Of a stretch of DNA of 64,000 bases, positions 2,020-56,492 are shown piece after piece (positions within the stretch are counted from its first letter, which is position 1; every line of letters starts with the position of its first letter). Source of the DNA: Candidatus Magasanikiibacteriota bacterium. GTDB taxonomy: Bacteria > Patescibacteriota > Patescibacteriia > Magasanikbacterales > GWA2-37-8. A program made the position numbers and the translations under genes. The notes beneath the pieces are model-generated. The model ran no database searches, had not been told where the DNA came from, and saw nothing but the letters and a program-made list of their open reading frames with translations. Location: the NCBI GenBank assembly GCA_030650025.1, contig JAUSEN010000024.1:563-64562 (forward strand), in the 5' to 3' direction.

Positions 2020-3170
2020 ATTGTTTTTATAAACTGTTTTACAATCCGCTCGACATCCTCGGCGGATTTGGCGTTCTCCATAAGTTCAACGCGTAGTTCT
2101 TTGGCGCCAGGGAAGCCGTTAACGTAGGCTTTGTAGTGCTTTTTCATGATGTCGAAATTTTTATGTTCACTTAAAAGCCTTTCAAATAATTTGGTGTGTT
2201 CGACCATGACAAAGAGTTTTTGTTTTGTTCCAACTGTCATCCCGAGTGAGGCCTCGCGGCCGACGAGGGATCTCTGTCCATCGATGGGTGACACAGAGAT
2301 TCCTCCTGCGACGTCGGAATGACAGTCGCGAAACAGCCACGGGTTGCCAAAGATGCCGCGGCCAATCATGACGCCATCGGCAGAAGTCTCGGTAATTTTA
2401 TTTTTGGCGTCGTTAATATCCAGCACGTCGCCATTGCCGAGGATGAGTGTTTGGTCGCGTAGGGGCGGGGTGACCCCGCCCCTACTAAAATTACCAAAAA
2501 AATCATCGCGAATTTCCACTGCCCGTTTAACATGCTCCCACCGAGCGGGAACTTTGGACATTTCTTTGCGGGTGCGGGCGTGAATTATTATAGCCGCGAG
2601 ATCCATTTCTAATAAATAAGGCAACCAAGTGTCCATTTCCACTTTGTTAAAGCCAACGCGAGTTTTTACGGAAATCGGCAGCTGGCCAGCCCCGCGTTTG
2701 GTGGCGGCAATAATTTCTGCCGCGAGTTTGGGGTTTTGCATGAGTTTAGCGCCCGCGCCTTGTTTTTCCACGTTTCTGTCCGGGCAGCCCATGTTGATAT
2801 CAATGCCGTCGAAGCCAAGTTCCTGGATTAAGAGAGCGGTTTTGTAAAAATTGTCTGGTTTTGAGCCAAAAATTTGCGCCACGATGGGCCGTTCGGCTTC
2901 GCTGAATTTAAAATCAATCAAAAGTTTGGCGCGGCCGGGAGATTGCAAGCCATCGCAAGAAGTAAACTCGGTAAACATTACATCTGGCCCGCCTACGCTC
3001 GCCTCCGACGAGCTACGGCGGGTAAACTTTCCTTGTTCATCAAAAATGTTCGCCCCGTCAAATTTTGAGTATTTAGCTATAATGGCACGAAACGCGCAGT
3101 CGGTAACATTGGCCATGGGGGCGAGGGCAAAAATAGGCCGGGTCAAGTTTTTCCAAAATCCAGAGCGCAT
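2016..3170 (-). CDS. dus: tRNA-dihydrouridine synthase (Dus family); carries an in-frame palindromic insert
   Basis: LAPMANVTDCAFR and GFDGIDINMGCP motifs are present. The insert encodes RGGVTPPL. Confidence 0.85.
   Translation of the reverse strand: MRSGFWKNLTRPIFALAPMANVTDCAFRAIIAKYSKFDGANIFDEQGKFTRRSSSEASVGGPDVMFTEFTSCDGLQSPGRAKLLIDFKFSEAERPIVAQIFGSKPDNFYKTALLIQELGFDGIDINMGCPDRNVEKQGAGAKLMQNPKLAAEIIAATKRGAGQLPISVKTRVGFNKVEMDTWLPYLLEMDLAAIIIHARTRKEMSKVPARWEHVKRAVEIRDDFFGNFSRGGVTPPLRDQTLILGNGDVLDINDAKNKITETSADGVMIGRGIFGNPWLFRDCHSDVAGGISVSPIDGQRSLVGREASLGMTVGTKQKLFVMVEHTKLFERLLSEHKNFDIMKKHYKAYVNGFPGAKELRVELMENAKSAEDVERIVKQFIKTI
2459..2485. repeat. In-frame GC-rich palindrome gtaggggcggggtgaccccgcccctac (gtaggg...ccctac family) inside dus
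   Basis: A perfect 27-bp palindrome read from the sequence. It is in frame and translates to RGGVTPPL. Confidence 0.8.
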
Positions 3171-3199
3171 GATTTAGGTTGGAAGCAGTTAAAATTCTT

Positions 3200-3646
3200 T
3201 TAAAAAGCGCCCGGGAGAGTCCCTTCGGCCGAGGTGGTGGCGTAAACTAGCTGGGTAATGACAAAACTGGCGATAGCGTACGCCGAGAGAATTATAGCGA
3301 GGCCGATGGCGCCGGAATAAAGGAATTTTTTGGCTTCGCCCACTTTTTCTTCATTGCCGCCGGCGGTCATCCAAATAAAACCGCCGAGGAGCACGATGAC
3401 CACCGCCACAATGCCGAGTAACCCCATGGCGACGCGAATAATACGCGCCATCGTGAGGCGAATATCCCCGGCGCCAAGGCCACTGGTTTCGGAAATTTTG
3501 GGCGGTAACAGCTCGTTAGGAGTAATTAAATCCGCTCGCGCGGGTAAAGCAAAATACGCCTGCGAGAGCAAGGCTAGAGAAAAAATATTTATGAGAAACA
3601 AAGATAGTTTTTTCATGTGTTGCCAGACTTGGATTCGCCCTATCAT
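3200..3646 (-). CDS. TrbC/VirB2-like T4SS pilin-type protein (signal peptide followed by two hydrophobic helices)
   Basis: A signal peptide (MKKLSLFLINIFSLALLSQA) is followed by IRVAMGLLGIVAVVIVLLGGFIW, a short polar loop and AIGLAIILSAYAIASFVI. This topology is typical of VirB2/TrbC pilins. Confidence 0.4.
   Translation of the reverse strand: MIGRIQVWQHMKKLSLFLINIFSLALLSQAYFALPARADLITPNELLPPKISETSGLGAGDIRLTMARIIRVAMGLLGIVAVVIVLLGGFIWMTAGGNEEKVGEAKKFLYSGAIGLAIILSAYAIASFVITQLVYATTSAEGTLPGAF
3618..3640. repeat. Direct repeat of the tRNA-Gln 3' end (gttgccagacttggattcg), about 70 bp downstream of the tRNA
   Basis: The 3618-3640 segment matches 3707-3729. Two small hairpins sharing 'tcattcgata' lie between the copies. 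Confidence 0.5.
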
Positions 3647-3705
3647 TCGATAGGGCGCCGTGTCGTCATATCATTCGATATGACCAACATGACACGGCGA
3701 ACATC

Positions 3706-3779
3706 TGGTTGCCAGACTTGGATTCGAACCAAGATAATAAGATTCAGAGTCTTATGTCCTACCATTAGACGATCTGGCA
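3706..3779 (-). tRNA. tRNA-Gln (anticodon CUG)
   Basis: Manual fold: 7-bp acceptor TGCCAGA/TCTGGCA, anticodon loop CTCTGAA, T-loop GGTTCGAATCC, discriminator A and an encoded CCA. Confidence 0.8.
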
Positions 3780-4628: not shown

Positions 4629-6181
4629 CTAACCACTTCGCCCCCAAATTCGAGCGCGAGCGATTGGAGTTCGGAGTCAGCGGTTGGCGCCGCGGGCGGG
4701 GGCGCGGTTAGAGAGCAAACCAGGGGAATTTTTTCGCCAAATTCCGCTTCGAGAGTTTGTTCGATGAGAATGCGGTTTTTGCGGTCTTCCAGCTTTTCTT
4801 TATGCAAAGAATAGGGGAGTGCGAGGTGAAGGCCGTCCGCGTCCACTTTGTTTAAGCTCGCCATGCTTAAAATAAAAGTGAGGGAATGGTTCGCTTTAGT
4901 GATGAGAGTTATTAAATTACTCCATTTGGTTTGAATTTCTTCCAGAGTAGTTTTTGGAGGTTCGCGGTGCCCGGTGATCGTTTGTAAAGCGGATTTCAAA
5001 GATTCAGTCAGAGAGTGTTTTGATTCGGGCGCGGCTGGTTTAGAGGCGGGAGTGGAGGCAGAGCTCGGGGGAGGCGTGGTAGGCAAAGAGGCGGAAGACG
5101 CGAACTCCACAATTAAAAGTTCCAGCGGTAGTTCTGGTAAAGGCGCGGATTTAATCTGGCCGCGGCGCTTAATAGTGAGATCAATAAGATTCTGAATATC
5201 GTTAAGCGCGCTGGCCGTGGCCAGCTTTCCGAGACGTTTAATGTGTTCGGGGCTAAAATCTGGAGATAAATCACTGCCAGTGAGGCCGATTTTAGCAAAC
5301 AGCACTGTCCGGAGCGCTTCTAAGAGATCCAGGGTAAACTGGTCAAGGCTTAAGCCTTCGCTGATCAGCCTCGCGAGAAGCTGGAAAGCGGCAGACATTT
5401 GGCGGGTGAGGAGGAATTCGGTAAATTCCAAAACCCCATCGCTCGCTCCGGCCGGCAAAATTAGTTCGGCGTCGGCCGCGGTTATTTTCTTTTGATCCAA
5501 AGTAAAAATTTGCCCGAGCAAACTCTCGGCATCGCGGAGGCAGCCGTCGCTTTTTTTAATGATACGCTCCAGCACTTCTTTGTCTACTTTTATTTTTTCT
5601 TCAGCGCAGATTTTTTTGAGGCGCTCCAGCATTAAATCGTGCGGTATTTTTTTAAATTGAAAGCGCTGGCAACGCGAAATAACCGTGGCGGGCAATTTGT
5701 GCAGTTCGGTGGTGGCTAAGATAAAAATAACATGGGCAGGCGGCTCCTCCAGGGTTTTAAGGAGCGCGTTGAAAGCGCTGCCCGAGAGCATGTGCACTTC
5801 ATCAATGATAAATACTTTGTATTTGGCCGTCGCGGGCTGGAAGTGAGCACTCTCGATAATATTTTCGCGGACATTTTCCACCCCGGTATGCGAGGCGGCG
5901 TCAATTTCCAAAACGTCGATAAAGCGCCCGGCGGCAATGGCCGTGCAAGCGCTACATTCTCCGCAGGGTTCACTGGTCGCTGCGGCTCGCTTCTCGCAGT
6001 TAATCGCTTTGGCTAAGAGGCGAGCGAGCGTAGTTTTGCCAACACCCCGAGGACCAGAAAACAAATAAGCCTGCGCGAGCTTATTTTGGGAGATCTCGTT
6101 TTTAATAGTTTGAGCAATATGTTCTTGGCCGATTAAATCAGCAAACACTTGCGGGCGGTATTGGCGATAAAGAGTGGGCAT
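4625..6181 (-). CDS. dnaX: DNA polymerase III subunit gamma/tau
   Basis: YRPQVFADLIGQEH, GPRGVGKTT and the zinc-module cysteines (CGECSAC) are present. Confidence 0.9.
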   Translation of the reverse strand: MPTLYRQYRPQVFADLIGQEHIAQTIKNEISQNKLAQAYLFSGPRGVGKTTLARLLAKAINCEKRAAATSEPCGECSACTAIAAGRFIDVLEIDAASHTGVENVRENIIESAHFQPATAKYKVFIIDEVHMLSGSAFNALLKTLEEPPAHVIFILATTELHKLPATVISRCQRFQFKKIPHDLMLERLKKICAEEKIKVDKEVLERIIKKSDGCLRDAESLLGQIFTLDQKKITAADAELILPAGASDGVLEFTEFLLTRQMSAAFQLLARLISEGLSLDQFTLDLLEALRTVLFAKIGLTGSDLSPDFSPEHIKRLGKLATASALNDIQNLIDLTIKRRGQIKSAPLPELPLELLIVEFASSASLPTTPPPSSASTPASKPAAPESKHSLTESLKSALQTITGHREPPKTTLEEIQTKWSNLITLITKANHSLTFILSMASLNKVDADGLHLALPYSLHKEKLEDRKNRILIEQTLEAEFGEKIPLVCSLTAPPPAAPTADSELQSLALEFGGEVVS

Positions 6182-9372: not shown

Positions 9373-9420
9373 GCGCCGCGCTTCAACGGACATTGCGCGG
9401 CATGATTTTGTCAAATCATG
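9373..9420 (+). promoter_or_regulatory. Conserved leader element: stem-loop gccgcgc-N13-gcgcggc followed by catgaNtttgtcaaNtcat (copy 1)
   Basis: The motif recurs at 13643-13700 and 22669-22712. In this copy it directly abuts the start of the 9418 ORF. Confidence 0.4.
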
Positions 9421-12351: not shown

Positions 12352-13569
12352 GTGAGTTATCAACAGGGGGAGGAGCATAGCTATAGGCTGGTGGCTGATT
12401 TTTTGCTATACTATAGGTATATGCTGTTTGGTAAACCCCATTCATTTTTGGGTATTGATCTTGGCGCCGGGGGCGTAAAATTAGTAGAACTAAAAACCGA
12501 GAAACACCGACCGGTTCTTTTTACTTATGCCGTCACAACCGATGGCCAGGACGTGCATCGCTTGCTCCACGAGAGCGTGAACACTCCCGAAGAAGGGAAA
12601 AAACAAAACCAGGCCAAAGTCAAAGAGTACGCGGCGGTTTTAAAGGCGGTTTGCGCCCGCGCCAACGCCAAGTCCAAGAACGCGGTCGTGAGCTTGCCGG
12701 TGTCGTCGGTATTTCATGCTTTGGTAACTTTGCCAGCGGCCAAGAAAGAAGATTTCGATCATTTTTTAAAAGCAGAAGTAAAGAAACTCCTGCCCTACCC
12801 GCTCGAGGAAGCAGTCTTGGATTATCAAATTTTGCCCGGGGAGGAAAAAGCTACCACCAAGCGGGTTTTGGTGAACGCGGTGCCGCGTGATTTGGTGGTT
12901 TTTTATACCGAGGTGTTTGCCGAGGCTGGCCTTAAGCTCGAGGCGCTCGAGCCCGAGTCCGTGGCCTTGGCTCGGTCTTTAATCGGGCGCGACCAGTCTG
13001 TTACCATGCTGGTGGATGTGGGGGCGGAGCGCACTAATTTTTTTATTATTGATGGGGGTGTTCCTATCACGCACCACAGCACTGAAGTGGGCGGCAATCG
13101 TTTAACAGCGATTTTTAAAAATATTTGGCAAGTGGACAGCGCGGCCGCGGAAATTTTGAAGATGGATTTATTTACGGAATTAACGCGCGGCAGTAACCAT
13201 GCGGCTGTGTCCCCCGACCCGTCTGCCGTCCCGCTTCGCCCGCGAAGCGAGGCGAGCGAGGCAAGCCGATTTAAAGCGCTGACCCTGCCGGTGGTGGATC
13301 CGATTTTAAAGGAAATACAGTATGGTTTTGAGGTCTATTTAAAGCAGAGCGGCAACGAGCAGAAACGCCCAGAAAAGGTAGTTTTGACTGGCGGAGCGGC
13401 TTTTTTACCATACCTCTCCGAGCAAATAGCGGCCAATTTTAAGATTAAGTGCTTTATTGGCGACCCGTGGGGGCGGGTTCTTTACCAAGATAGGCTAAAA
13501 CCGATTCTGCGCGCGGTAGGGCCAAGGCTAGCGGTGGCTATTGGCCTAGCATTGCGCAGTATGGTATAA
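12352..13569 (+). CDS. pilM: Type IV pilus assembly ATPase-like protein PilM; carries an in-frame GC-rich hairpin insert
   Basis: It has the actin-like fold signature FLGIDLGAGGVKLVEL. The GC-rich insert encodes PDPSAVPLRPRSEASEAS. Confidence 0.8.
   Translation: MSYQQGEEHSYRLVADFLLYYRYMLFGKPHSFLGIDLGAGGVKLVELKTEKHRPVLFTYAVTTDGQDVHRLLHESVNTPEEGKKQNQAKVKEYAAVLKAVCARANAKSKNAVVSLPVSSVFHALVTLPAAKKEDFDHFLKAEVKKLLPYPLEEAVLDYQILPGEEKATTKRVLVNAVPRDLVVFYTEVFAEAGLKLEALEPESVALARSLIGRDQSVTMLVDVGAERTNFFIIDGGVPITHHSTEVGGNRLTAIFKNIWQVDSAAAEILKMDLFTELTRGSNHAAVSPDPSAVPLRPRSEASEASRFKALTLPVVDPILKEIQYGFEVYLKQSGNEQKRPEKVVLTGGAAFLPYLSEQIAANFKIKCFIGDPWGRVLYQDRLKPILRAVGPRLAVAIGLALRSMV
13232..13249. repeat. In-frame GC-rich palindrome cgcttcgcccgcgaagcg inside pilM
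   Basis: The palindrome is read from the sequence. It sits in a locally GC-rich segment of the coding sequence. Confidence 0.6.
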
Positions 13570-13642
13570 TAGTATCCAGGCGTGTTATAATATAAATTAA
13601 GCATAATCAGCAATAAAAGGGGGCTAAAATTAATTCAGAAAG

Positions 13643-13700
13643 CGCCGCGCTTCAGCGGATCCCGACTTAGTCGGGACGCGGCATGAATTTGTCAATTCAT
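13643..13700 (+). promoter_or_regulatory. Conserved leader element (copy 2), with an extra small hairpin (tcccgac-tta-gtcggga) inserted in its loop. Its ATG is the start of the response-regulator ORF
   Basis: The motif gcgccgcgcttcagcgga[...]cgcggcatgaatttgtcaattcat is the same as at 9373-9420. Confidence 0.4.
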
Positions 13701-14081
13701 ATGGAAAAAAATAAAATAAATATTTTACTAGTTGAAGACGATATTTTTTTGGCCGGAATTTACCAGAAGAAGTTTGAAATGGAAGCCTATAAAATAGTGG
13801 TGGCGGATAACGGCGAGAAGGCGCTCGTAGAAGCCAAAAAGAAAAAATTTGATATAATTTTGCTTGACATTTTGCTCCCTAAATTAGATGGGTTCGCGGT
13901 CTTAGAGAAACTTAAAGCTGACCCGGAGACTAAACCGATCCCGGTAATTTTGTTGACGAATTTAGGCCAAAAAGATGACGTGGACAAGGGTTTGCAAGCC
14001 GGCGCCGTGGATTATTTGATTAAGGCGCATTTTAAACCATCGGAAGTGGTGGATAAAGTGCGGGCGGTTTTGAAAATTTAA
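13683..14081 (+). CDS. Response-regulator receiver domain protein (CheY-like, stand-alone)
   Basis: LLVEDD, DIILLDILLPKLDG and a conserved Lys region are present. Confidence 0.8.
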   Translation: MNLSIHMEKNKINILLVEDDIFLAGIYQKKFEMEAYKIVVADNGEKALVEAKKKKFDIILLDILLPKLDGFAVLEKLKADPETKPIPVILLTNLGQKDDVDKGLQAGAVDYLIKAHFKPSEVVDKVRAVLKI

Positions 14082-14126
14082 GCCGCGTCGGTCATTTTTG
14101 AAAAGTATCATTTTTATAATGAATCT

Positions 14127-14564
14127 TTGGAAGGAGGTGACACTATGAATAAAAAAGGCTTTACTTTAATTGAACTTTTGGTTGTTATCGCTATTATTGG
14201 CTTATTGTCCACTTTGGCGGTAGTAGCGCTCGGTAGCGCCCGCGTTAAAGCGCGCGATTCCAAGCGTTTAAGCGATCTTAAACAGCTCCAGACAGCATTC
14301 GAACTTTATTACACCGATCAGAACGCTTATCCAGCGGGAAGCGGCGTCACTTTGGGTTCAGGAGACTATGCTTGTCTGAACGCGACTGGCTTCGCGGCCA
14401 CTGGCTGTGCCACCCCTTATATGGGCCAAGTTCCTAAAGATCCAAAAGACTTCACTTACGTATATACTTTAGCCTCCAGCACCTATAGTGTGGCGGCGGA
14501 GCTTGAGGGTACGGTAAACGGTTTGACTGGCGTGATTTCTTTGTCTCCGGCTGGAATTAAATAA
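14127..14564 (+). CDS. Type IV pilin (prepilin with an N-terminal methylation motif)
   Basis: [19 protein letters not shown] is the class III signal peptide. Confidence 0.85.
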
Positions 14565-14672
14565 TTGATAAGCAATTACAAAAAAATCTCCCCCTCGATA
14601 TTTACTCCGGGAGATTTTTTGTTTACTTAAAATAGTTTTTTTGCTATAATATATGCGATTTTTAGTATTTTT

Positions 14673-15503
14673 ATGGCGTTTGACAGCCTACAACTAGCAG
14701 TATATTTGCTTATTAGTTTACTCGGACTTTGTTTTGGCAGTTTTGTGAATTCTTGGATGTGGCGAGTAAAAAATACACGCGAAAAGATTGGGAGGCGCAG
14801 TGTTTGTGTGCATTGCGGCGAGAAAATTATTTGGTACGACAATATTCCGTTATTTGGTTTTTTGCGGTTGCGTGGGCTTAGCCGGTGCTGCCGCCGACCG
14901 ATTCCGCAAGATTATTTTTGGGTGGAGCTCGCGGGAGGGTTCTTGTTTTTATTAGTCGCTCTTTATCATCTCAACTTAGTTATTTTTAATCCCGTTTTTT
15001 TTGCTCGGGATTTATTTTTTATTTGTATTCTGTTGGTAATCTTTTTATATGACGCCAAGTATCAGTTAATTTTAACTGGAGTAGTGGCGGCCGGGGGGTT
15101 GGGCGGTTTTATTTTTAATTTGTTCACCGCGCGGCCATTTACTACTTATATTTTGCTTTTTAATCATAATGCCGCGGCGATTGCCAGCAATCTGGCGCTC
15201 GGAGCCATAGTCGGGTGGGGTTGGTTTGCTTTCCAATATTATGCCTCGCGCGGTAAATGGGTGGGCGGCGGCGACGTGCGCCTCGGCGCTATGCTCGGCC
15301 TCTGGCTCGGCTGGCCGCTTATTCTGGTTTGTTTATTTTTTTCCTATATTCTTGGTGCTCTGGTGGCAGTGCCGTTGTTAATACTCAAGAAAAAGCAGTT
15401 TGGTTCGGCTCTGCCGTTTGGGACTTTTTTAGCAGTCGGGGCAGTGATCACGATTTTTTATGGCCAGCCAATTTTCAATTGGTATTTGAGGTTTTTAGGG
15501 TAA
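14673..15503 (+). CDS. pilD: Prepilin peptidase (A24 family)
   Basis: An N-terminal CxxC...CxxC zinc module, multiple transmembrane helices and the conserved GGGD-containing region are present. Confidence 0.8.
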   Translation: MAFDSLQLAVYLLISLLGLCFGSFVNSWMWRVKNTREKIGRRSVCVHCGEKIIWYDNIPLFGFLRLRGLSRCCRRPIPQDYFWVELAGGFLFLLVALYHLNLVIFNPVFFARDLFFICILLVIFLYDAKYQLILTGVVAAGGLGGFIFNLFTARPFTTYILLFNHNAAAIASNLALGAIVGWGWFAFQYYASRGKWVGGGDVRLGAMLGLWLGWPLILVCLFFSYILGALVAVPLLILKKKQFGSALPFGTFLAVGAVITIFYGQPIFNWYLRFLG

Positions 15504-15507
15504 TAAT

Positions 15508-16227
15508 ATGACCGAAGATTTTAAGAGCACCAGGGGGCAACGTTTAAATGAGTTTCGGTTTGCGCCGACTGACTATTCTTTGCAAAAAATGCAGGAATTA
15601 AAAAGAGCGCTACCTGATCTACGTTCTGAAATTCCCGAAGTACGCGGCTTTGCTTTTTACGGTTCTCGTGTGCATGGCAGAGAACGTCCCGAAAATGGCG
15701 CAGATCGTTCGGATGTGGACGTATGTGTTTTTTATGACAGTTCAGATATAGCAGACTCAAGAAAAAAAGTGGCTGTAGTGGAAAGGATTGTAGAACTTGA
15801 AGGTCGCATTAGGCGAGCCGTGCATAAACGGTTGGAGGCAATTGATTTACCAGCTCACGGGTATGAACCGCAGGTCGCATTATTTGATATAAATCGTGAG
15901 CAAATAAATTTTTTTATACAACAATTCATACAAGAAGTTAAAAAAAACATAGAAACAAACGGAGACAATTTGCCTTTTCAAATTTGGGCAAAACGTTTAT
16001 TTCCAATTTTTCTTTTGAGTACTAGCCGCGCAGTATATGAGGCACGCGATAGTTTCTTTACTGCTCTAGAAAAAGAACCGCAAGGTGATGTTTATTGGGA
16101 TTTGTTTATTGGATTATTTGAAAAATTTGAACGTCATAAAGTGGTTGATAAAGATGGTAAAACAGTAATTTTTAAACATTGGCCACGGACAACCAAAGAG
16201 GCGCGTGAATATTTTTTTGTTAAGTAA
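15508..16227 (+). CDS. Pol-beta superfamily nucleotidyltransferase-fold protein of unknown function
   Basis: It has the minimal nucleotidyltransferase signature GS-x14-DVDV (FYGSRVHGRERPENGADRSDVDVCVFYD). Confidence 0.4.
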   Translation: MTEDFKSTRGQRLNEFRFAPTDYSLQKMQELKRALPDLRSEIPEVRGFAFYGSRVHGRERPENGADRSDVDVCVFYDSSDIADSRKKVAVVERIVELEGRIRRAVHKRLEAIDLPAHGYEPQVALFDINREQINFFIQQFIQEVKKNIETNGDNLPFQIWAKRLFPIFLLSTSRAVYEARDSFFTALEKEPQGDVYWDLFIGLFEKFERHKVVDKDGKTVIFKHWPRTTKEAREYFFVK

Positions 16228-16230
16228 GTT

Positions 16231-40119: not shown

Positions 40120-40548
40120 GGGGTCTAGTTTATCAGATTGCTCTTTAAAATGCAACTATAAAGTTACATGTGAGTGTCAGACAAAAAAAGAACTCCCTTG
40201 CGGGAGTCCCGAGATTCAGAGTAGCGTTTTTAGCGCCAACTAGACTTGCTATCCATAACTAAGGATACCAAGTAGCGAAAATATCGTCAAGTAGTTGTCC
40301 ACAGGACATTAACATAAAAATCCCTTTTGTTAAGGGATTCATATGTTGACACACAGAGTAAAACCAGAGTTAATATCTGGCACACTGTACAAATTAAGAA
40401 TAACAGCTTGAGAAAAAATTGTCAACCACTTATCCATTTTTTTAAGTTCACGAGGCGCCGAATGTGTTAATTTGGCCTGTCGTGAGCCTTAAAAAGCTCG
40501 TTAGTTCTTTACAACTTAAACGGTTTGACTATATAAAGTAATAAAATT

Positions 40549-40635
40549 GTCCTACCGGGAACAAAGCCTTGTATATAATAATATTATATATATTTTATAT
40601 ATTATTTAAATACAATTCTTTTTCCCCGGTAGGAC
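40549..40635 (+). promoter_or_regulatory. Conserved leader hairpin, copy 2 (with a longer AT-rich loop)
   Basis: The same stem (gtcctaccggg / cccggtaggac) and downstream ribosome-binding-site block as at 38607-38696. Confidence 0.55.
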
Positions 40636-40676
40636 TCACGCCGAGTTCTCCGAAAGGGATCCTCAAGGAGGATGAT

Positions 40677-42314
40677 ATGACCAAGACCCGCATCGAGGGT
40701 TTCGGCAAGGCGGCCGCGTTGGCCGCAACCCTGCTCGTGGGGACCTTCACGAGCAACGGCTGCGGGAACGGACCGGTCAACCTCACCGTCGTCTACCAGG
40801 ATGACGGCGGCGCGATCCCGACCCCCAGCCCGGACCTCGCCCAGGCCCCGGCCGACCTCGCGGTCGCGCCGGACCTGACGCCCACGCCGGATCTCGCCCA
40901 GGCCCCCGTCGCCGACCTCGCGGTCGCGCCGGATCTGGCCCAGGCGCCCGACCTCACCCCGCAGTGCCCGCAGGGCCTCACCCTGTGCGGCAACCGCTGC
41001 GTCGACCTGACCGTCGACAACGCGAACTGCGGCCGGTGCGGCCAGGCGTGCGCGAATGGCGCCGAGACCTGCTCCAACGGGAAGTGCGTCTCGGCGTGTC
41101 CGCAGAACACGACGTACTGCTGGCAGAACAACGCCGGCTGCACGAACGTGCTCACCGATTCCGCGAACTGCGGGATGTGCGGCAAGGTGTGCCCCCCGGG
41201 GAACACCTGCGCGCGCGGCCAGTGCGCAGTCGACCAGAACCTCAACTGCGGGCAGAAGATCGCCTGCGGCAAGGACTGCATCGACATCGCCAACGACCCG
41301 GTGAACTGCGGCGGCTGTGGCAAGGCCTGCTCGGCCATCAACATCGATGGCAACCCGACGTGCACCGGGAAGGTGTGCACGGGTCAGTGCCGTCCCAATT
41401 TCGGGGACTGCGACAGCAACAAGCTGACCAACGGCTGCGAGACCAACCTCATGACCTCCGTGGGCAACTGCGGCGGCTGCGGGGTCGAGGTCCCGCAGAA
41501 TCTCCCGAACACGAGTTCGTCCATCTGCCAGCTCGGCGCGTTCACCCCGGTCTGCAAGCCCGACTTCGGGGACTGCAACGTGTGGTGGCGCGACGGGTGC
41601 GAGATCAACTTTCTCGCGGACGACAACAACTGCGGCCAGTGCGGCAACTGGTGCGCGTGGGGCGAAGTCTGCCTCCAGGGCGTCTGCAAGGAGCCCCCTT
41701 GCCCGATGAACCAGACCAGGTGCTTCGGCGCCTGCAAGGACCTCTCGGCTGACCCCCAGTACTGCGGCGCTTGCAATCAGGCGTGCAAGCAGGGTGAGAC
41801 CTGCAAGCAGGGGCAGTGCATCGCCCCCCCGCAGCCCGACCTCGGCGGCAACAACGTCGACATGGCGTCGCCGCCGGACCTCGGTACCCCCCAGGGCGAC
41901 CTGGCCCAGGCCGCCAGGTACGAATTGAAGGTCTCGGACCCGAAGCCGGGGACGAACGTCGAGGTGTGGTTGACCTCGAACGCGATGGGGGCGCTCCACA
42001 GCTTTGCCCCCAGCACCTTCAGCCTCTCGGCCGCCGACATCTGCGGCCACATGGTCCGGGGGCAGGTCAGCCCGGGCCTTGAGGGGTGGGTTCGGGACTA
42101 CACCGGGGATCCGGCTGGGAACAGCTGGATCGGCTGCCCGCCCAACCCGCGGGCGGTCACCGAGCTCACGTACGAGTTCGGCCCGGTGGGGATGATGAAG
42201 AAGCCGGTGCCGGCCAAGGGTGTCGGGCAGGTCGACGCCTGCAACGGCATGGGCATGCCGAACTTCTTCATCACCCAGGCCGATCTGGCGGCCGCGGGCC
42301 TGGTCTGCCCGTAG
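40677..42314 (+). CDS. Secreted or lipoprotein-like protein with PDLAQAP repeats and Myxococcus-type cysteine-rich (CGxCG...C) repeats, encoded by a roughly 70% GC ORF (GC-rich cassette 3)
   Basis: The N-terminus MTKTRIEGFGKAAALAATLLVGTFTSNGC is followed by more than ten NCGxCGxxC-type repeats and a C-terminal non-repeat domain. Confidence 0.55.
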   Translation: MTKTRIEGFGKAAALAATLLVGTFTSNGCGNGPVNLTVVYQDDGGAIPTPSPDLAQAPADLAVAPDLTPTPDLAQAPVADLAVAPDLAQAPDLTPQCPQGLTLCGNRCVDLTVDNANCGRCGQACANGAETCSNGKCVSACPQNTTYCWQNNAGCTNVLTDSANCGMCGKVCPPGNTCARGQCAVDQNLNCGQKIACGKDCIDIANDPVNCGGCGKACSAINIDGNPTCTGKVCTGQCRPNFGDCDSNKLTNGCETNLMTSVGNCGGCGVEVPQNLPNTSSSICQLGAFTPVCKPDFGDCNVWWRDGCEINFLADDNNCGQCGNWCAWGEVCLQGVCKEPPCPMNQTRCFGACKDLSADPQYCGACNQACKQGETCKQGQCIAPPQPDLGGNNVDMASPPDLGTPQGDLAQAARYELKVSDPKPGTNVEVWLTSNAMGALHSFAPSTFSLSAADICGHMVRGQVSPGLEGWVRDYTGDPAGNSWIGCPPNPRAVTELTYEFGPVGMMKKPVPAKGVGQVDACNGMGMPNFFITQADLAAAGLVCP

Positions 42315-42486
42315 GCCGCCGCCGATAGTAGTCAAACCGCTTTTGCCCCGAGTCACGCGGGCCGGCCCTGAAAGGAGGCCAAAACGTGACATGGGGTGGG
42401 TCAATGAGACTTCACAGATACGGCAAAACTCACCCCTCCCCAATTGTGTTCATCATCACAAGGTGGTGAATAGAAACTAGGGACAA

Positions 42487-49404: not shown

Positions 49405-50361
49405 TTAATCCCCGGTGATGAGGCAAACGACGGGTCTCGCAAAAACAGACCCGTTTTTTATTGCCTGCCTTAACCCGGCAATTGATAGGGCGCTATTCGG
49501 AGAGATGTTTAGCAGGCAGTGGTTCGCGACTAATTTTTGAGAGGAAATAATTTCGCTATTATTTACTACCAGGCCCTTCCCAGCAGTTGTTTTTAATAAT
49601 TTTAATATCTCGGCTTTGCGATGAGCGATGTGGTCGACGATGGCGGTAGCGAGTGAGACCTCTTTTTTTTCGGGTAGGGAACGCATATATGCGTTCCCTA
49701 CAAACGGATGGCAAGAAGTCGTCTGCACAATAAAAATTTTAATTGATTTATTTAATTTTTTGAAGCCCGCGTAAAGGCCAACGGCGGTGGTGCCGCTTGA
49801 TGTCGGCACAAATATTGCCCCTAGATTTTTTATTTTAGCCAGTTCCGCGGCTAGTTCCTGGTAGCCGAGCGGGGCAAATTTGTCAGTTGATTGGCGTAAA
49901 AATACAACGCCATTATTTTTTGCAAATTGGAAGGCCGATTGTTTGGGGTTTTGAGTTTGTTTAATAACAATATTTTTAGAGGGAGCGGTTTTAAGTAGTT
50001 TGGCAAGTTTTTGGCTGGGAATTTTTGGCCCGACAAAAATTGTCAAATTTATTTTAGGGCTCGCTTTATTTTGATTATGCTTCTTGATGTAAAGAAGAGC
50101 GGCCAGAGCGGCATTGCCCGAAGAAGAAATAACAAAGTTACGCGCGCCGCGCGCCGCGTGCTGGTTAATCATAACCGGTAGAGACCGGCCTTTATGAGAT
50201 CCTAATGGGTGCAAATCTTCGCGTTTTAACCACAGCTCGGTTTTAAGACCCAGAATGGTTGCTAGTTTTGGATATTGCTTTTGAGGAGTTAGCACCTGCC
50301 TGCCGCCTGCCTGTCCGGTAGGCAGGGCAGGCAGGTCTTGATTTATTTTAAATTTCAGCAT
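49405..50361 (-). CDS. PLP-dependent enzyme of the Trp-synthase-beta / threonine-synthase-like superfamily; carries an in-frame palindromic insert
   Basis: HPLGSHKGRS is a PLP-lysine motif. A glycine-rich loop (SSGNAALAAL) follows. The insert encodes GNAYMRSL. Confidence 0.55.
   Translation of the reverse strand: MLKFKINQDLPALPTGQAGGRQVLTPQKQYPKLATILGLKTELWLKREDLHPLGSHKGRSLPVMINQHAARGARNFVISSSGNAALAALLYIKKHNQNKASPKINLTIFVGPKIPSQKLAKLLKTAPSKNIVIKQTQNPKQSAFQFAKNNGVVFLRQSTDKFAPLGYQELAAELAKIKNLGAIFVPTSSGTTAVGLYAGFKKLNKSIKIFIVQTTSCHPFVGNAYMRSLPEKKEVSLATAIVDHIAHRKAEILKLLKTTAGKGLVVNNSEIISSQKLVANHCLLNISPNSALSIAGLRQAIKNGSVFARPVVCLITGD
49674..49701. repeat. In-frame palindrome gtagggaacgcatatatgcgttccctac inside the PLP-enzyme gene
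   Basis: A 28-bp perfect palindrome; this is the third copy of this exact element. Confidence 0.8.
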
Positions 50362-50402: not shown

Positions 50403-50567
50403 TATGCGTTTAACTTGTCCAGAATGCAAAAACGACGTTGATTTAACCACTTACATGGATATTTTGCCGGAGTCAGTGGTGGAGTGCAATGTCTGCGGCA
50501 TTAGTTTAATGGTTAAGAGTATTGATGGCGAAGCAGTTAGCGCCGAGATTGTGGACGAAGGGAAGTG
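50403..50567 (+). CDS. LysW-like zinc-ribbon mini-protein of 54 aa
   Basis: MRLTCPECKNDVDL...VVECNVCGISLMV...EIVDEGK. A C-x2-C...C-x2-C ribbon and an acidic C-terminus resemble LysW/ArgW amino-group carrier proteins. Confidence 0.3.
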
Positions 50568-52012
50568 ATCAATTCTTCAATCATCCCTCTAAATCCGTGG
50601 CTGCCTAAAAATACGACGACGTCGCCGCTGTTTACTTGGTTTTTTATGTAAGTAATTAGTTTTTGGTCATCATCAATATATTTTACATTGGTATGAGTGG
50701 CGGCGATGACTGTCGCCAGCTCATCGCCTTCAATCGGTAATGCCTTGGTTGGCGAAGTTTTGATTTTTGTCAGCTTCGGCACTATCACTTCGCTTGCCGC
50801 GCTAAAAGCATGCGCGTAGCCCGGTAACGCGGCCGGTTCGCGGTTGCCGGAGTTAGGTTCGAAAACAGCAATAATTTTATTTTTATAAACTTGCCTAAGC
50901 GAGGCGAGGTCGGCTTGGGCTTTGGTGGGAGAGTGGGCGATGGTGTCGAAGACCGTAATTTTTCCGTCCAGTCTTTTTTCTAAACGCCGTTTGACGCCTT
51001 TAAAACTTTTTATGGCCGCAATAATTTTGTTCGGTTCCAGGCCGCATTCCAGGGCCATCGCAAAACAGCCCGTGGCATTGTCGGCCATATATTCGCCAAG
51101 GCAGGTGGTAGCCACTGGATAGCTTTGGTTTTTGTAGAGAATATTGAACGAAACGCCGCTAACAGTTTCAACGACATTGGCATAGACATAGTCGCACCCG
51201 GCGGTTTTGCCATAACTGATAATTGTTTCGCCGTTGTGCTTAATTAGAGGCAAGGCTTTTTCGGAAATTATTCGCAGACCAGTTTTAGGTACACTGTTAT
51301 ATAATTTTTGAAAAACTTCAAAATAGGATTTTTCCGTAGGGTAAACGTCAGCATGGTCCCAGACCACGGAAGTCAGCAGGAGGTGGGTAGGCTTATAATA
51401 GTCAAATTTGGGGCTATTGTCCCAGCGAGCGGTTTTATATTCATCGCCTTCGACGATTGACCACTGACCGTCCAGTAGGGGCACGGCATGCCGTGCCCCT
51501 ACGTTTGTTTGCCCTAAATCAGCGGCTGGCATCTCGTTTAAACTAATACCGCCAAACATGTAACTGGGGTTTATCTTGGCGTATTTAAAAATCCAAGTCA
51601 GTAGAGCGGTGGAGGTGGATTTGCCAAAAGTCCCGGCGCAGACAATAGAATTGGTTTTAATAAAAAAATCACGTATTACTTCGGGGTAGGATTTGTAATT
51701 TAATTTATGTTCCTGCACGTAAAGCCATTCGGGGTTATGTGAGCTGGCGACGTTCCCTACCACAACCAAATTCGGCGCTCCGCTCGCCATCATTTTGTCC
51801 GGATGCCAACCCGGGTAAAAATCAACTCCGGCGTCTTTTAAATGCGTGGAAACCGGCGGGTAAAATCCAACATCACTGCCAGTAATTTTGTACCCGGCCC
51901 CGCCATTCTGGTCGGGGTGAACTTTTTTAAAAGCAATCGCGAGCGCGCTCATCGCCACTCCGCAAATGCCGATAAAGTGAAGGTGTTTAGACATGTAATA
52001 ATAATATTCCAA
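50537..52012 (-). CDS. Mur ligase family protein (Mpl/MurC-like); carries an in-frame palindromic insert
   Basis: HFIGICGVAMSALA...ITGSDVGFYPPVSTHL is Mpl-like, and a GTFGKST P-loop is present. The insert encodes VGARHAVPL. Confidence 0.7.
   Translation of the reverse strand: MEYYYYMSKHLHFIGICGVAMSALAIAFKKVHPDQNGGAGYKITGSDVGFYPPVSTHLKDAGVDFYPGWHPDKMMASGAPNLVVVGNVASSHNPEWLYVQEHKLNYKSYPEVIRDFFIKTNSIVCAGTFGKSTSTALLTWIFKYAKINPSYMFGGISLNEMPAADLGQTNVGARHAVPLLDGQWSIVEGDEYKTARWDNSPKFDYYKPTHLLLTSVVWDHADVYPTEKSYFEVFQKLYNSVPKTGLRIISEKALPLIKHNGETIISYGKTAGCDYVYANVVETVSGVSFNILYKNQSYPVATTCLGEYMADNATGCFAMALECGLEPNKIIAAIKSFKGVKRRLEKRLDGKITVFDTIAHSPTKAQADLASLRQVYKNKIIAVFEPNSGNREPAALPGYAHAFSAASEVIVPKLTKIKTSPTKALPIEGDELATVIAATHTNVKYIDDDQKLITYIKNQVNSGDVVVFLGSHGFRGMIEELITSLRPQSRR
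51475..51502. repeat. In-frame palindrome gtaggggcacggcatgccgtgcccctac inside the Mur ligase gene
   Basis: A 28-bp perfect palindrome. Confidence 0.8.
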
Positions 52013-52506: not shown

Positions 52507-53190
52507 TTAGTTAAAAATTAGTTTAAGTTCAGTTATGTCGATCTTCCATTTCGTTTTGTCCCACCATTGTAGCCCTTCAAATTGCAACTTATATTTATCA
52601 GTCGGGCGGGAAAAACTGCCGAGGTAAACATATTTTTTTCCGGCTTCTTTGGCCCATAAAATTGCTTTTAGCATCATGCCGAGGCCCAGATTTGGTATTT
52701 TTGTTTTCAGATTATAAAAGGGGTAACAGTAGTGGAGGAGTTCGTTGGTTTGCAGGCAGATGGCGTAGCCAACGGCCGATTGTAGGGGCGAACGGCCTTT
52801 CGCCCCTACGCCAGAATCGTCTAATGTATATACCAAAACGCAATTAAAATTGCTTTTATTTTTGTCAGTCAGCAATTCTTTAATTTTATTAGCAGAAAAC
52901 ACTGAACCAAATTTAGTATCATAAAAATCTTTACCAAGTTTGCCAATGTTAAAATGGTAATCGGCGTAGGGGAGAGGGCATGCCTCAAGCTTCACGTCTT
53001 CGGTTTTTTTAAGCACGCGACGGTTTTCGCTGGAGAGCACGAATTTAGATAGATCAATGCGCAGACTCCTGGTTTGATACATCTCGCCCTTGCCCGTGCG
53101 GCCGAACAAATAACCCTGGTGGTACAGGGAGTTGATGTTCTGGTCAGAGAAATCCGTGATGGTTTTTTCGTCCCATTTGAGATAAGCCAT
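52507..53190 (-). CDS. Arginyl/leucyl-tRNA--protein transferase-like protein (ATE_C/Bpt family); carries an in-frame palindromic insert
   Basis: KYVYLGSFSRPTDKYKLQFEGLQWWD resembles the ATE_C YLGYY...KM.YK..F.P.E motif. The insert encodes GVGAKGRSPL. Confidence 0.4.
   Translation of the reverse strand: MAYLKWDEKTITDFSDQNINSLYHQGYLFGRTGKGEMYQTRSLRIDLSKFVLSSENRRVLKKTEDVKLEACPLPYADYHFNIGKLGKDFYDTKFGSVFSANKIKELLTDKNKSNFNCVLVYTLDDSGVGAKGRSPLQSAVGYAICLQTNELLHYCYPFYNLKTKIPNLGLGMMLKAILWAKEAGKKYVYLGSFSRPTDKYKLQFEGLQWWDKTKWKIDITELKLIFN
52782..52809. repeat. In-frame palindrome gtaggggcgaacggcctttcgcccctac inside the bpt-like gene
   Basis: A 28-bp palindrome. Confidence 0.8.
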
Positions 53191-54322: not shown

Positions 54323-54353
54323 GCAAACAGCATACCAAAGATAATGATAATTT

Positions 54354-55127
54354 TCAAGCGAGAGCGCGAAGGCGGCGAAGCTCTAAAATGCTGGCTAGTT
54401 TTGCCCGTTCGGCATAGGTTTCGTTTTGATTGTTGACAGCATTTTTTTCTTCCCAAGTTTGTTCTAATAAATTGCCACTCGGTTTAGTGACAGTAATATG
54501 GCCACGGCGCACGCCACTCTCATAACGGCCATCGGACTTCCAGGGAACAGAGTGAATATAGCCGAGCACCGGCATGCCGTTGTTATTAGTGGTGACTTTT
54601 TCAATCAGAACTACATGTGAAATATATTTATTTTTTTCTGGCGCGCGCATGATTATAAAATCTCCGGGCTTAGCCTCTGATAAATTTATTTTGTAACTAT
54701 TTTGATCGTTCCCAAGAGTCGCGACGCCGGTATTCTCCGGCGGCCGGAGGCGCGCTAGAATTTTGCGCCAAGGAGTCTGCGCGCCAGTAAATTTAATTTT
54801 GCTGGCTAAGCCTCCTTGCCCGCGGGCTTTCAATTCCGCGTCTAAAATATAATAAACAAATCCCGAGCAATCAACCCCCAAACGATGCTCTACTAAGAAT
54901 TTTTTGATGGCTTCGGGAGAGAGTTTGGCGAGATCGATTTTTTCGTGCAGGCTAACGATGTGCGCTTCTTCGACAATATCTGCGGGGCTGCCTTTACCAA
55001 CGTGTGCCCGCAAGCCGGCCCGCAGTTTTAGGCGATCGTTGTTGTAATAAGGGCATTGCACCGGGCCACTTGGGAAGGGGAGAGCTAAATAGTCGGAGAT
55101 TATTTTTTGGGCCGCTTCTGTCAGCAT
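54354..55127 (-). CDS. NlpC/P60 (C40) family peptidase-like protein
   Basis: LGVDCSGFVYYIL carries the catalytic Cys, and the downstream region reads PGDFIIMR...HVVLI. Confidence 0.5.
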   Translation of the reverse strand: MLTEAAQKIISDYLALPFPSGPVQCPYYNNDRLKLRAGLRAHVGKGSPADIVEEAHIVSLHEKIDLAKLSPEAIKKFLVEHRLGVDCSGFVYYILDAELKARGQGGLASKIKFTGAQTPWRKILARLRPPENTGVATLGNDQNSYKINLSEAKPGDFIIMRAPEKNKYISHVVLIEKVTTNNNGMPVLGYIHSVPWKSDGRYESGVRRGHITVTKPSGNLLEQTWEEKNAVNNQNETYAERAKLASILELRRLRALA

Positions 55128-55130
55128 AGT

Positions 55131-56492
55131 CTATTGTGCTTTTATTATTTTGGTTATGATTTTGCCGAGCGCGCTAAAAACACCCGGGGTTTGCATAATA
55201 CCAGCGCGTGCCTGAATGCGCAACCAATCCTCGCCCGGTTTGGTATTGTTATAATATACCACGTTAAATTTGTTTGGTTCCAGTTTTTTTACAAGGGCTT
55301 TTTGTCTGGGTAGGATCCAGGTCGCCTTAGGCGACCTGGATCCTACGTTTTCTGGTACGCGCATTATTATTTGGCTGCCGTTTTTAATGGGAATTATTTT
55401 TTGGTTTTTATAAGGGAGTCCAAGAACAGCGGCGAGATGAGCTTCGAAAGTCGTGATTAATTTGTCATTTGCTCGCCCGGCGGGCTCGGTCGAAATGACA
55501 AGTTGTTGCAATTGGCTTTCATAAGTCGTGCTGGCCGGTTGGCGGGCGTTAATTTCTATCAAATAAATTTTACCGGTTTTCGTTTCGAGCATTACATCAA
55601 TGCCAAATAGACCGCGCCAGTTATGTTTTGCCAATTTTTTTCCAACGGCGGTAGCTATTTTTTTGATTTGATTGGTTTGCTTGGTGGTTAGTAATTTGTT
55701 TGGTAATTTCCAGTCATTGCCAATGGTCGCAAATTGAGAACTGGTAAACGGTGGTAGGCCGGTGATTTGGTAGCTAATATTGCCAGTTAAGACATTTTTA
55801 CTTGCCTCGCCGGTAGGCGGGCCCCAAACAACCGCGTTGACGGTAAAGGCAGGGCCAGAAATATATTTAGTAACGCGGATGGGGCGGTTAGGGAATTGGT
55901 TCGCAATTTCTCGCGTTTGTTTTTTTGATTTTATCAAAGCAGTCCCGCTACCGGTATGGGCGCGATTAAATTGGGCGATAAATTTTTTAGATGTCATCCC
56001 CGACCTGATCGGGGATCCAACTGTCCGGATTCCCGCTTTCGCGGGAATGACAAGTGGCCAAGATAAGCCTTTCCCCAGAACAATTTTATGCGGTGGCAGA
56101 TATTTAGTGAGTGGCCCAAGCCATTTTATTTGCGAGATTTTTTCCTCGACTTGGTTTGCCAGCTCGGCGGGCGGGTTCAGGAGTGTCCAGTTGTGCGCGC
56201 GGCAGATTTTTTCTATCTGGGTAGTATTTTTAAAAACTAAAATTTTTGGCTGTTTGAGCTTGACCAGTATGGACTGAGTCGTTTTATGCCCTAGTAGATC
56301 TAGGGTAGAAAGCAAGGATTTGTTAACAATAAGATGAATATTAGGCAGGTTGCTGGCGGCTGTCTTCGCAAAGGGCGTGGCATTTGTTATAATATGGAAC
56401 CGAGGCGCGCCCGCTAATCCAAAAGCGCGCTCTAAATCGCGCGCTACAAAGACTATTGGATTTTTATGTAAAGCCTTGTACAATGCCTGCAT
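55131..56492 (-). CDS. ATP-grasp domain protein; carries two in-frame palindromic inserts
   Basis: GKIYLIEINARQPAST is an ATP-grasp motif. The inserts encode VGSRSPKATWILP and AGIRTVGSPIRSGMTS. Confidence 0.55.
   Translation of the reverse strand: MQALYKALHKNPIVFVARDLERAFGLAGAPRFHIITNATPFAKTAASNLPNIHLIVNKSLLSTLDLLGHKTTQSILVKLKQPKILVFKNTTQIEKICRAHNWTLLNPPAELANQVEEKISQIKWLGPLTKYLPPHKIVLGKGLSWPLVIPAKAGIRTVGSPIRSGMTSKKFIAQFNRAHTGSGTALIKSKKQTREIANQFPNRPIRVTKYISGPAFTVNAVVWGPPTGEASKNVLTGNISYQITGLPPFTSSQFATIGNDWKLPNKLLTTKQTNQIKKIATAVGKKLAKHNWRGLFGIDVMLETKTGKIYLIEINARQPASTTYESQLQQLVISTEPAGRANDKLITTFEAHLAAVLGLPYKNQKIIPIKNGSQIIMRVPENVGSRSPKATWILPRQKALVKKLEPNKFNVVYYNNTKPGEDWLRIQARAGIMQTPGVFSALGKIITKIIKAQ
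55310..55346. repeat. In-frame 37-bp perfect palindrome gtaggatccaggtcgcc-tta-ggcgacctggatcctac (gtagg...cctac family) inside the ATP-grasp gene
   Basis: Read from the sequence. Confidence 0.8.
55996..56048. repeat. Two adjacent in-frame hairpins (atccccga-cct-gatcggggat and attcccgc-ttt-cgcgggaat) inside the ATP-grasp gene
   Basis: Read from the sequence. They resemble the hairpin inserted into the 13.6 kb leader (tcccgac-tta-gtcggga). Confidence 0.7.

Follow-up and report, generated by a model that had tools for sequence, protein, structure and literature searches.

GTAG-tagged palindromic hairpins read in frame in conserved genes of a Magasanikiibacteriota genome and their probable link to a clade of RAYT-like Y1 transposases

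The DNA analyzed here is a stretch of 64,000 nucleotides from a Candidatus Magasanikiibacteriota bacterium (assembly GCA_030650025.1, contig JAUSEN010000024.1, positions 563 to 64,562 of the forward strand), in the following called the window, which contains a class of short hairpins tagged with GTAG, most of them located inside genes. These hairpins are probably elements of the REP class (repetitive extragenic palindromes), single ones and one back-to-back doublet, which fall into several families and would be the cognate sites of a large clade of Y1 (HUH) transposases resembling the REP-associated tyrosine transposases (RAYTs). We assign this reading a probability of about 0.7. A 5' GTAG beside a hairpin is the hallmark of the REPs that are recognized by RAYT, or TnpA_REP (PMC3733652, PMC3333891). 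Within this known class they stand out as symmetric GTAG REPs with perfect stems, mostly intragenic, in a genome of the candidate phyla radiation (CPR), from families that extend over several phyla and occur inside the frame of the presumed transposase.

The pattern GTAGG-N10-40-CCTAC has nine matches in the window where 0.61 are expected, and none of 100 shuffled sequences reached this number. An exhaustive hairpin scan added the symmetric variant GTAAGG…CCTTAC at 16744-16771 and GTAGAG…CTCTAC at 27654-27682, giving a total of 11 GTAG-class palindromes of 27-48 nt, nine of which are intragenic and in frame, one is located at a stop codon and one is intergenic. All 11 copies start with GTAG or GTAA and end with CTAC or TTAC. 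The single hairpins measure 27-37 nt, and eight of them have perfect stems. The 48-nt doublet at 17522-17569 consists of two adjacent hairpins, both likewise perfect, and is the only inverted REP pair, similar to the arrangements known as REPINs (REP doublets forming hairpins) or BIMEs (bacterial interspersed mosaic elements); the remaining copies are single symmetric hairpins. When folded as single-stranded DNA (ssDNA), every copy reaches -7 to -26 kcal/mol with z-scores of -4.6 to -10.7 relative to shuffled sequences. The initial annotation had listed ten sites as perfect palindromes with gtagg(g) ends. Pattern and hairpin scans confirm a palindrome at all ten, and most copies fit this description, but the doublet is two hairpins, the copy at 20881-20908 is imperfect with a one-base asymmetry, and 16744-16771 has the variant ends given above; an eleventh copy at 60222-60249 had been overlooked. 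Because about 88% of the window is coding as judged by greedy calling of open reading frames (ORFs), the presence of 9-10 of the 11 copies in genes is what random placement would give, and genes are not depleted of GTAG hairpins.

By Pfam, the host genes encode Dus, NAD-dependent LigA, PpsA, PALP, Mur ligase, ATE_C, ATP-grasp and sulfatase-like proteins. The LigA sequence has 100% identity to an NCBI protein of Candidatus Magasanikbacteria. The dus gene (2016-3170, minus strand) hosts the 27-nt perfect hairpin GTAGGGGCGGGG-TGA-CCCCGCCCCTAC in frame at 2459-2485, where it is read as SRGGVTPPLR. Two copies are found in ligA, the 28-nt perfect palindrome GTAAGGAACGCATATATGCGTTCCTTAC at 16744-16771 in a loop of the adenylation domain (read VRNAYMRSL) and the REP doublet at 17522-17569 in the zinc-finger loop, in which GTAG-hairpin 1 is followed by hairpin 2-CTAC (read RRGAVSAPRGGETPPLR). 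Two further copies belong to ppsA: the 28-mer GTAGGGAACGCATATATGCGTTCCCTAC at 20725-20752 in a C-terminal extension (read VGNAYMRSLP) and the imperfect 28-nt hairpin GTAGGGGCGGGCAGTGCCCGCCCCCTAC at 20881-20908 (read VGAGSARPLQ). The gene for a PALP enzyme dependent on pyridoxal phosphate (PLP; 49405-50361, minus strand) contains at 49674-49701 a 28-mer identical to that at 20725, again read VGNAYMRSLP, and the Mur ligase gene (50537-52012, minus strand) contains the perfect 28-nt palindrome GTAGGGGCACGGCATGCCGTGCCCCTAC at 51475-51502, read VGARHAVPL. The 28-nt hairpin GTAGGGGCGAACGGCCTTTCGCCCCTAC at 52782-52809 in the bpt-like (ATE_C) gene is read VGAKGRSPLQ, and the 37-nt perfect hairpin GTAGGATCCAGGTCGCC-TTA-GGCGACCTGGATCCTAC at 55310-55346 in the ATP-grasp gene is read VGSRSPKATWILP. 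A degenerate relative of the 28-mer, GTAGGGGCATGATATATCGTGTCCCTAC, occupies the end of the sulfatase-like gene at 60222-60249. The intergenic hairpin at 27654-27682 has the sequence GTAGAGACAGGGCACTGCCCTGTCTCTAC, with pairing that reaches 27651-27685.

Confinement to the window, which the initial annotation had named as a point against mobility, is not what was found, as the same sequences are present in many other genomes and metagenomes. The 28-mer GTARGGAACGCATATATGCGTTCCYTAC was scanned in one genome per species and occurs as an exact match at at least 115 loci in at least 39 assemblies, counted by accession prefix. Among the matches listed there are about 12 phylum-level labels, namely Thermodesulfobacteriota, Elusimicrobiota, Patescibacteria (Moranbacteria, Falkowbacteria and others), Dadabacteria, Bacillota, Leptospiraceae, Gammaproteobacteria, KSB1, Acidobacteriota, FCPU426, WOR-3 and Omnitrophota. 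Other metagenome-assembled genomes (MAGs) carry at least 6-12 loci each. Most of the listed copies in other genomes lie outside long ORFs; in frame, the 28-mer was found in UvrC (Moranbacteria), twice in PheT and in a RluD-type pseudouridine synthase (Falkowbacteria; read SRERIYAFPT). A metagenome scan for the GC-rich family of the dus copy, GTAGGGGCGGGG-N1-5-CCCCGCCCCTAC, returned at least 120 loci. For carriage by phages, a single match in IMG/VR was obtained. That one and the same 28-mer is common to several phyla argues for horizontal spread. In a Patescibacteria MAG (L081, 3779-3859), the 28-mer and 12 nt of flanking sequence on both sides form a tandem duplicate with a period of 53 bp.

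Clustering of the ORFs over the 28-mer loci yielded a recurring ORF of about 180 amino acids that contains the 28-mer in frame just behind the HUH motif (loci L012, L026, L032, L098 and L113), with remnants in L010 and L034, so that 6-7 of the at least 115 loci show this arrangement. It matches Pfam Y1_Tnp with 25-27 bits at a threshold of 23. The best NCBIfam match is REP-associated tyrosine transposase (E=6e-19, 68.4 bits, under the equivalog cut-off of 80), and many homologs bear the JGI label 'REP element-mobilizing transposase RayT'. A search of the PDB with the single sequence gave no match, and a profile of 24 sequences retrieved 4ER8, the E. coli TnpA_REP, as its sole match. An AlphaFold (AF2) model with a predicted local distance difference test score (pLDDT) of 81 and a predicted TM-score (pTM) of 0.78 led Foldseek to IS608 TnpA and 4ER8 (E of about 4e-7); the best superposition on 4ER8 has TM-scores of 0.58/0.62 and a root-mean-square deviation of 3.9 Å. 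H75 and H77 of the HUH motif as well as Tyr146 are invariant in the alignment. By these matches and the model, the protein is a Y1 transposase of a distant RAYT-like clade, many members of which are labeled RayT by the sources. The remnants in a Falkowbacteria MAG (L010, 6754-6999) and a Dadabacteria MAG (L034, about 4841-5125) start exactly at the 28-mer and lack the N-terminal half, which is what breakage at the hairpin would leave; that in L034 has an additional internal stop.

In the model, the peptide encoded by the hairpin (residues 83-91) is a loop of low confidence that connects the HUH strand with the helix after it. Nearly all of the best 120 homologs of the first RAYT have VGNAYMRSL there, a doubled form of it, or another peptide of the type V-G-…-L or R-G-…-P-T. 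At the DNA level, two of three RAYT variants contain perfect hairpins inside their ORFs (GTAGGGACAGAACATTGTTCTGTCCCTAC and GTAGGGGACGCAGATCTGCGTCCCCTAC), and in the third the hairpin is located at the 3' end of the gene with its TAG as the stop codon. We also asked of each protein whether a perfect GTAGG…CCTAC hairpin of 24-33 nt could code for any of its peptides, leaving doublets and decayed copies uncounted. This is the case for 133 of 240 RAYT homologs (3.0 sites per 1000 amino acids), for 2 of 120 LigA homologs (0.02) and for 4 of 150 Mur homologs (0.06), the LigA and Mur controls addressing specificity and not the prevalence over all RAYTs.

Other hairpin families of the window recur in the same context. 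Of the at least 120 metagenome loci listed, 5 have the GC-rich family within a RAYT homolog or at its end. In L186 and L219, the family of the dus copy is located inside RAYT ORFs and read RRGGVTPPLQ, the reading in L186 being that of the window's dus gene. A second homolog search identified RAYT loops encoding GGVTPPL, GAIHELPL, GANGRSPL, GGSRTAPT, GAGSPRPY and GEVTSPL. The RAYT P0298 of L242 contains GTAGGGGCGAACGGCCGTTCGCCCTTAC, nearly identical to the copy in the bpt-like gene, and is followed downstream by a different GTAG hairpin. For the RAYT P0331 of L243, the 5' flank holds the dus element of the window base for base, and the ORF contains an internal, spaced doublet of the same two hairpins as the ligA doublet. 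A RAYT with internal 28-mer coexists with 5 to at least 10 dispersed copies in the same MAG in SBS.BIN.12, Dadabacteria PMV_6.24, Syntrophaceae co378_81 and Falkowbacteria 1946.

The E. coli TnpA_REP binds GTAG plus hairpin on ssDNA, requires the GTAG, cleaves with limited site specificity and carries out strand transfer (PMC3333891). By analogy, a RAYT encoded elsewhere in the Magasanikiibacteriota genome, or formerly present in it, would bind the GTAG-tagged hairpins on ssDNA at replication forks, cut with loose site specificity and paste the hairpin elsewhere, as the E. coli enzyme does in vitro. With symmetric hairpins both strands would offer the same substrate, and loose cleavage positions would produce junctions of variable length. 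In a gene-dense CPR genome with about 88% coding sequence, most landing sites would be genes. The surviving copies would be those in which a multiple of three was restored, the xxG-TAG phase was avoided and a permissive surface loop was hit, so that they are translated as loops of roughly 9-16 amino acids; a copy in the TAG phase would survive only at a gene end. A hairpin within the reading frame of the transposase would moreover keep enzyme and site together during horizontal transfer, and we propose that one 28-mer is common to several phyla because it travels in this way. Somewhat short of an even chance, in our estimate, is the wider idea that a phylum-crossing RAYT-like clade with its own hairpin or REP doublet in frame after the HUH strand constitutes one inseparable, horizontally transferable replicator, whose offspring hairpins become peptide loops in essential CPR proteins.

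Alignment of the host proteins with their orthologs, as proposed in the initial annotation, shows the copies in LigA, Mur ligase and Dus to be lineage-specific insertions. The loop holding the first ligA copy comprises five residues in nearly all of 120 LigA homologs, and only the window carries LSDVRNAYMRSL there, an addition of about 12 amino acids. In the zinc finger, the doublet in ligA adds 16 amino acids that separate one Cys pair from the other, confirming its assignment to this finger, and is common only to the closest relative, L116. This relative is syntenic, has a LigA with 73% identity, and contains neither the first ligA copy nor the two ppsA copies. Other inserts of varied sequence occupy the same zinc-finger loop in about half of the 40 closest homologs, which marks it as a permissive hot spot that was struck repeatedly. 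The Mur copy is absent from all other sequences among 31 homologs, and the dus copy coincides with a 14-residue gap against solved Dus structures. Not every copy could be shown to be an insertion in this manner: the one in the PLP enzyme aligns without gap to a distant threonine synthase. The net inserts amount to about 12, 13 and 16 amino acids and do not correspond to a constant 28 nt plus 2.

Among close CPR relatives, LigA varies in length between 655 and 756 amino acids, and in the 120 homologs varied repeat-like peptides are found at the same two to three loops in the zinc finger and the adenylation domain, for example …SLRSGRNDRL…, …ILSEPKDPSRSKRDSSATPQND… and …RGAGGVLAHLPLTKRE…. Hairpin families other than the GTAG class are suggested by this variety.

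No direct repeat that would represent a target-site duplication flanks 116 independent copies; there is only a weak preference for T at -1 and A at +1. When the joined flanks of 255 GTAG hairpins were compared by blast with all fetched loci in a search for empty sites, only filled orthologous sites were obtained, and terminal-base variants are too rare to fix the ends of the element. In the filled orthologous sites, an ascertainment-biased sample, perfect 27-29-mers are kept between flanks of 82-90% identity. An identity as MITE (miniature transposable element with inverted repeats) was rejected, as the whole unit is one hairpin and the 116 independent copies have no flanking direct repeat.

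Several observations weigh against the assignment to RAYT-like transposases. The E. coli TnpA_REP needs a stem mismatch and neither binds nor cuts a perfect palindrome (PMC3333891), and most copies described here are perfect; this requirement may be specific to the E. coli enzyme. Precise insertion of 28 nt would shift the frame, the net inserts differ in size as given above, and neither a target duplication nor an empty site was found. In the 64-kb window, tblastn with seven RAYTs matched the hairpins alone, and there is no RAYT in the 22-kb loci of the relatives L116 and L245 either. All named matches of both RAYT searches are from outside the CPR, the sole CPR instance being the truncated remnant in the Falkowbacteria MAG. 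The families of the copies at 51475, 20881, 55310 and 27654 have no RAYT-embedded counterpart among the 240 RAYTs sampled. Finally, the RAYT searches were seeded with queries that included the palindrome peptide, which biases their top hits.

Part of this evidence would also fit a scenario in which the hairpins are mobile or copied without a RAYT, by another enzyme, by recombination or gene conversion between copies or by template switching at forks, with RAYT genes being merely a favored and tolerant landing site. It would account for the absence of RAYT genes from the window and the loci of the two relatives and for the perfect stems, which the one RAYT studied biochemically does not accept as substrates (PMC3333891); moreover, the distance between HUH motif and hairpin differs by 0-9 residues from one RAYT to another, as would be expected of independent insertions. 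Speaking against it, RAYTs have 50-150 times the hairpin density of LigA or Mur homologs, the hairpin always occupies the same loop between structural elements, with V83, G84 and L91 (nearly) invariant in the alignment, different RAYT subclades carry different hairpin families, and GTAG is the known recognition tag of RAYTs. We regard mobility independent of a RAYT as unlikely.

Slightly less likely still is that the copies are old, immobile relics, which are kept since the host has come to use the hairpin, for example as DNA or RNA structure, or the loop it encodes, for example on the surface of the protein. The ligA doublet speaks for such a view: the window and L116 have the same two 8-bp stems, and the four differences in 48 nt all fall into loops or spacer while the flanking codons differ by about 29%. 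This conservation shows constraint on the DNA, which may equally stem from a host function, from gene conversion or from ongoing recognition by a transposase. The perfect 27-29-mers in the filled orthologous sites, with the ascertainment bias mentioned, also agree with retention. On the other hand, the nearest relative is devoid of most copies, identical 28-mers are present in unrelated genes, and the element load differs sharply between relatives: the 64-kb window has 11 copies, the 22-kb locus of L116 has one, and that of L245, also 22 kb, has a single degenerate match, GTAAGG…CCCTAC.

The host ORF runs through all nine intragenic copies, and Pfam domains match on both sides. The seven copies with a length of 1 mod 3 (six 28-mers and the 37-mer) are in the GTA-GGG… phase and read V-G-…-L; the 27-mer and the 48-mer are in the xGT-AGG… phase. 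A predicted junction peptide between host and element is …SSVGNAYMRSLPAG…. None of the nine is in the TAG phase, in agreement with the statement of the initial annotation that this frame is never used, which holds inside genes but not for the copy at 60222-60249, whose TAG provides the stop codon of the sulfatase-like ORF 57946-60225. Similarly, the 28-mer was said to be read always in the frame giving GNAYMRSL; this is correct for the window, but elsewhere it is also read as (S/G/C)RERIYAFPT, so that a fixed reading frame is not a property of the element itself. The central claim of the annotation, that conserved genes have acquired short GC-rich GTAGG(G)…(C)CCTAC hairpins in frame and are translated across them, is borne out. 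Stable mRNA hairpins could in principle be processed, and intron-like removal or recoding would then prevent them from adding residues. No support for this was found, and we consider it very improbable, as all nine intragenic copies keep the frame of the host only if their own bases are counted, with Pfam domains on both sides, the only copy in the TAG phase ends its ORF, and no Rfam family matches the palindromes. More improbable yet is an origin as ancestral loop sequence or assembly artefact: the gap-free alignment of the PLP-enzyme copy would suit the former, but the homolog alignments, in which the insertions are unique among 120 LigA and 31 Mur sequences, rule this out for ligA, Mur and dus, the same sequences occur in MAGs of many projects and platforms, and an independent Logan assembly (run SRR13727527, L117), 99.99% identical over window positions 13231-20753, reproduces both ligA palindromes, which are therefore no artefact of one assembly. 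The contig of this assembly ends exactly at the copy at 20725-20752, in the way in which a repeat breaks an assembly.

With the GTAG REPs, REPINs and BIMEs of Escherichia, Pseudomonas and Stenotrophomonas (SMAG) and their RAYTs, the elements share the 5' GTAG, a GC-rich hairpin of 20-40 nt, multi-copy families, inverted doublets and the physical link to a Y1 HUH transposase, with TnpA_REP (4ER8) as the closest solved structure. In contrast to these classical systems, the tag is symmetric (GTAGGG…CCCTAC) and paired within perfect stems of 13-18 bp, where the E. coli enzyme needs a mismatch. The copies are mostly intragenic instead of extragenic (9 of 11, with one more overlapping a stop codon), and the 28-mer, found in about 12 phylum-level groups among the matches listed, is not species-specific. 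The hairpin is also found in frame within the RAYT ORF and not only beside it, and this RAYT scores under the NCBIfam equivalog cut-off. The fold of the protein, the use of an ssDNA hairpin with an adjacent tetranucleotide and the lack of a target-site duplication are likewise features of IS200/IS605 TnpA (IS608, ISDra2). In those elements, however, the transposase is flanked by a pair of imperfect hairpins that differ from each other, and the insertion is next to a tetra- or pentanucleotide that is fixed, whereas here a single hairpin of 27-37 nt is the whole dispersed unit and only the weak T(-1)/A(+1) preference is seen.

In-frame GTAG REPs and REP dimers have been described in DNA ligase, repair and replication genes, tRNA synthetases and pseudouridine synthases, chiefly of Opitutus terrae, some of them at ORF ends (Di Nocera et al. 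2013, PMC3733652). The hosts found here resemble that set: in the window they are ligA and dus, in other genomes UvrC, PheT and the RluD-type enzyme. In the Opitutus survey intragenic copies are a minority, while in the CPR genome they make up 9 of 11, equal to the coding fraction, and the element sequences are different. The initial annotation had regarded in-frame palindromes as not known from CPR; we indeed found no CPR report, but intragenic GTAG REPs in frame as such were already published (PMC3733652). Its comparison with the Rickettsia palindromic elements (RPEs) is an analogy only. As in Rickettsia, a small and gene-dense genome tolerates selfish palindromic DNA in frame in its essential genes, where it contributes a peptide loop. 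However, RPE-1 exceeds 100 bp and the short RPE-4/6 belong to a CGTC-tagged superfamily without link to a transposase (Di Nocera et al. 2013, PMC3733652), and there is no sequence relationship to the 27-48-nt, GTAG-tagged and RAYT-linked elements described here. Di Nocera et al. 2013 (PMC3733652), Bertels et al. 2017 (PMC5581495) and Quentin et al. 2018 (PMC6006769) report REPs beside RAYT genes, and none of them mentions a hairpin inside the ORF; Bertels et al. analyzed extragenic flanks alone (PMC5581495). Patescibacteria are unmentioned in a 2025 REP survey. Full-text literature searches gave no report of the element DNA, of its peptides, or of REPs together with Patescibacteria, nor one of intragenic GTAG REPs in CPR, of one REP common to several phyla or of a REP inside the frame of its RAYT; such absence is no proof of novelty.

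Further hairpins without a GTAG end were observed in the window. The 113-bp element at 267-379 consists of a GC hairpin at 323-343 that is enclosed by perfect terminal inverted repeats of 19 bp (ATATGATTTTCGCGTTTGG). Together with the intergenic palindrome at 27651-27685, it had been taken to suggest that the machinery behind the intragenic palindromes also acts outside genes. The palindrome at 27651-27685 does belong to the GTAG…CTAC class, but the 267-379 element has no GTAG tag, no second copy in the window and none in 241 fetched loci, so that nothing connects it with that machinery. A second palindrome family without GTAG is represented by CCCTCTCCTTTGCGAAGGAGAGGG at 63011-63034, with the C-rich arm first, in frame in the ORF 62765-63907 (minus strand) and read …PSPSQRRGRGEVS…; in the relative L245, 22 kb contain five copies of this family, of which one is located in the ligA gene. 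The intergenic perfect hairpins at 177-217 and 25977-26016 have 18-bp stems and loops (CTAAA, TTAG) resembling the loop of the 55310 element, that at 177-217 with an internal GTAG…CTAC; they may be terminators or related hairpins.

Known RNA families (Rfam) in the window are limited to a tmRNA gene (29361-29762, minus strand, tag peptide ANNLLARVSNKIANLFSGFSFAPAMA), tRNA-Gln (3706-3779) and tRNA-Asp (25798-25872). The block at 36700-42450 has 53-60% GC in a genome of about 46% GC; rRNA as its cause was rejected by the same Rfam result. It contains three paralogous plus-strand genes with 100% identical leader and trailer segments of 55-66 nt (38635/40610, 37938/39842), one gene with Stig1-like Cys-rich repeats and the others without Pfam match, and ARAGORN calls two odd 'tRNA-???' in its repeated spacers. 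At 22703-22740, 9387-9418, 13668-13699 and 22681-22712, we noted a 10-bp unit, CGTTAATTCA, three times in tandem and a conserved motif of about 24 nt (ACGCGGCATGAATTTGTCAATTCA-like) upstream of three genes, which may have this regulatory site in common.

By definition, REPs are extragenic and species-specific, and their RAYTs are domesticated genes that are inherited vertically. The elements described here depart from this picture in an intragenic density equal to the coding fraction, in a 28-mer present in about a dozen phylum-level groups and in a hairpin inside the frame of the transposase, and these three departures suggest a way in which a REP could remain linked to its RAYT and be passed on horizontally with it. 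If the proposal of such a linked replicator is true, internal hairpins could explain why RAYT groups with few flanking repeats looked 'REP-less' in surveys of extragenic flanks only. On the practical side, the hairpins break short-read assemblies and inflate the variation in protein length, for example of LigA, and recurrent peptides such as GNAYMRSL, GGVTPPL and GAIHELPL can give spurious similarity between unrelated predicted proteins. For the CPR bacteria themselves, the hairpins are a possible source of lineage-specific loops in essential proteins.

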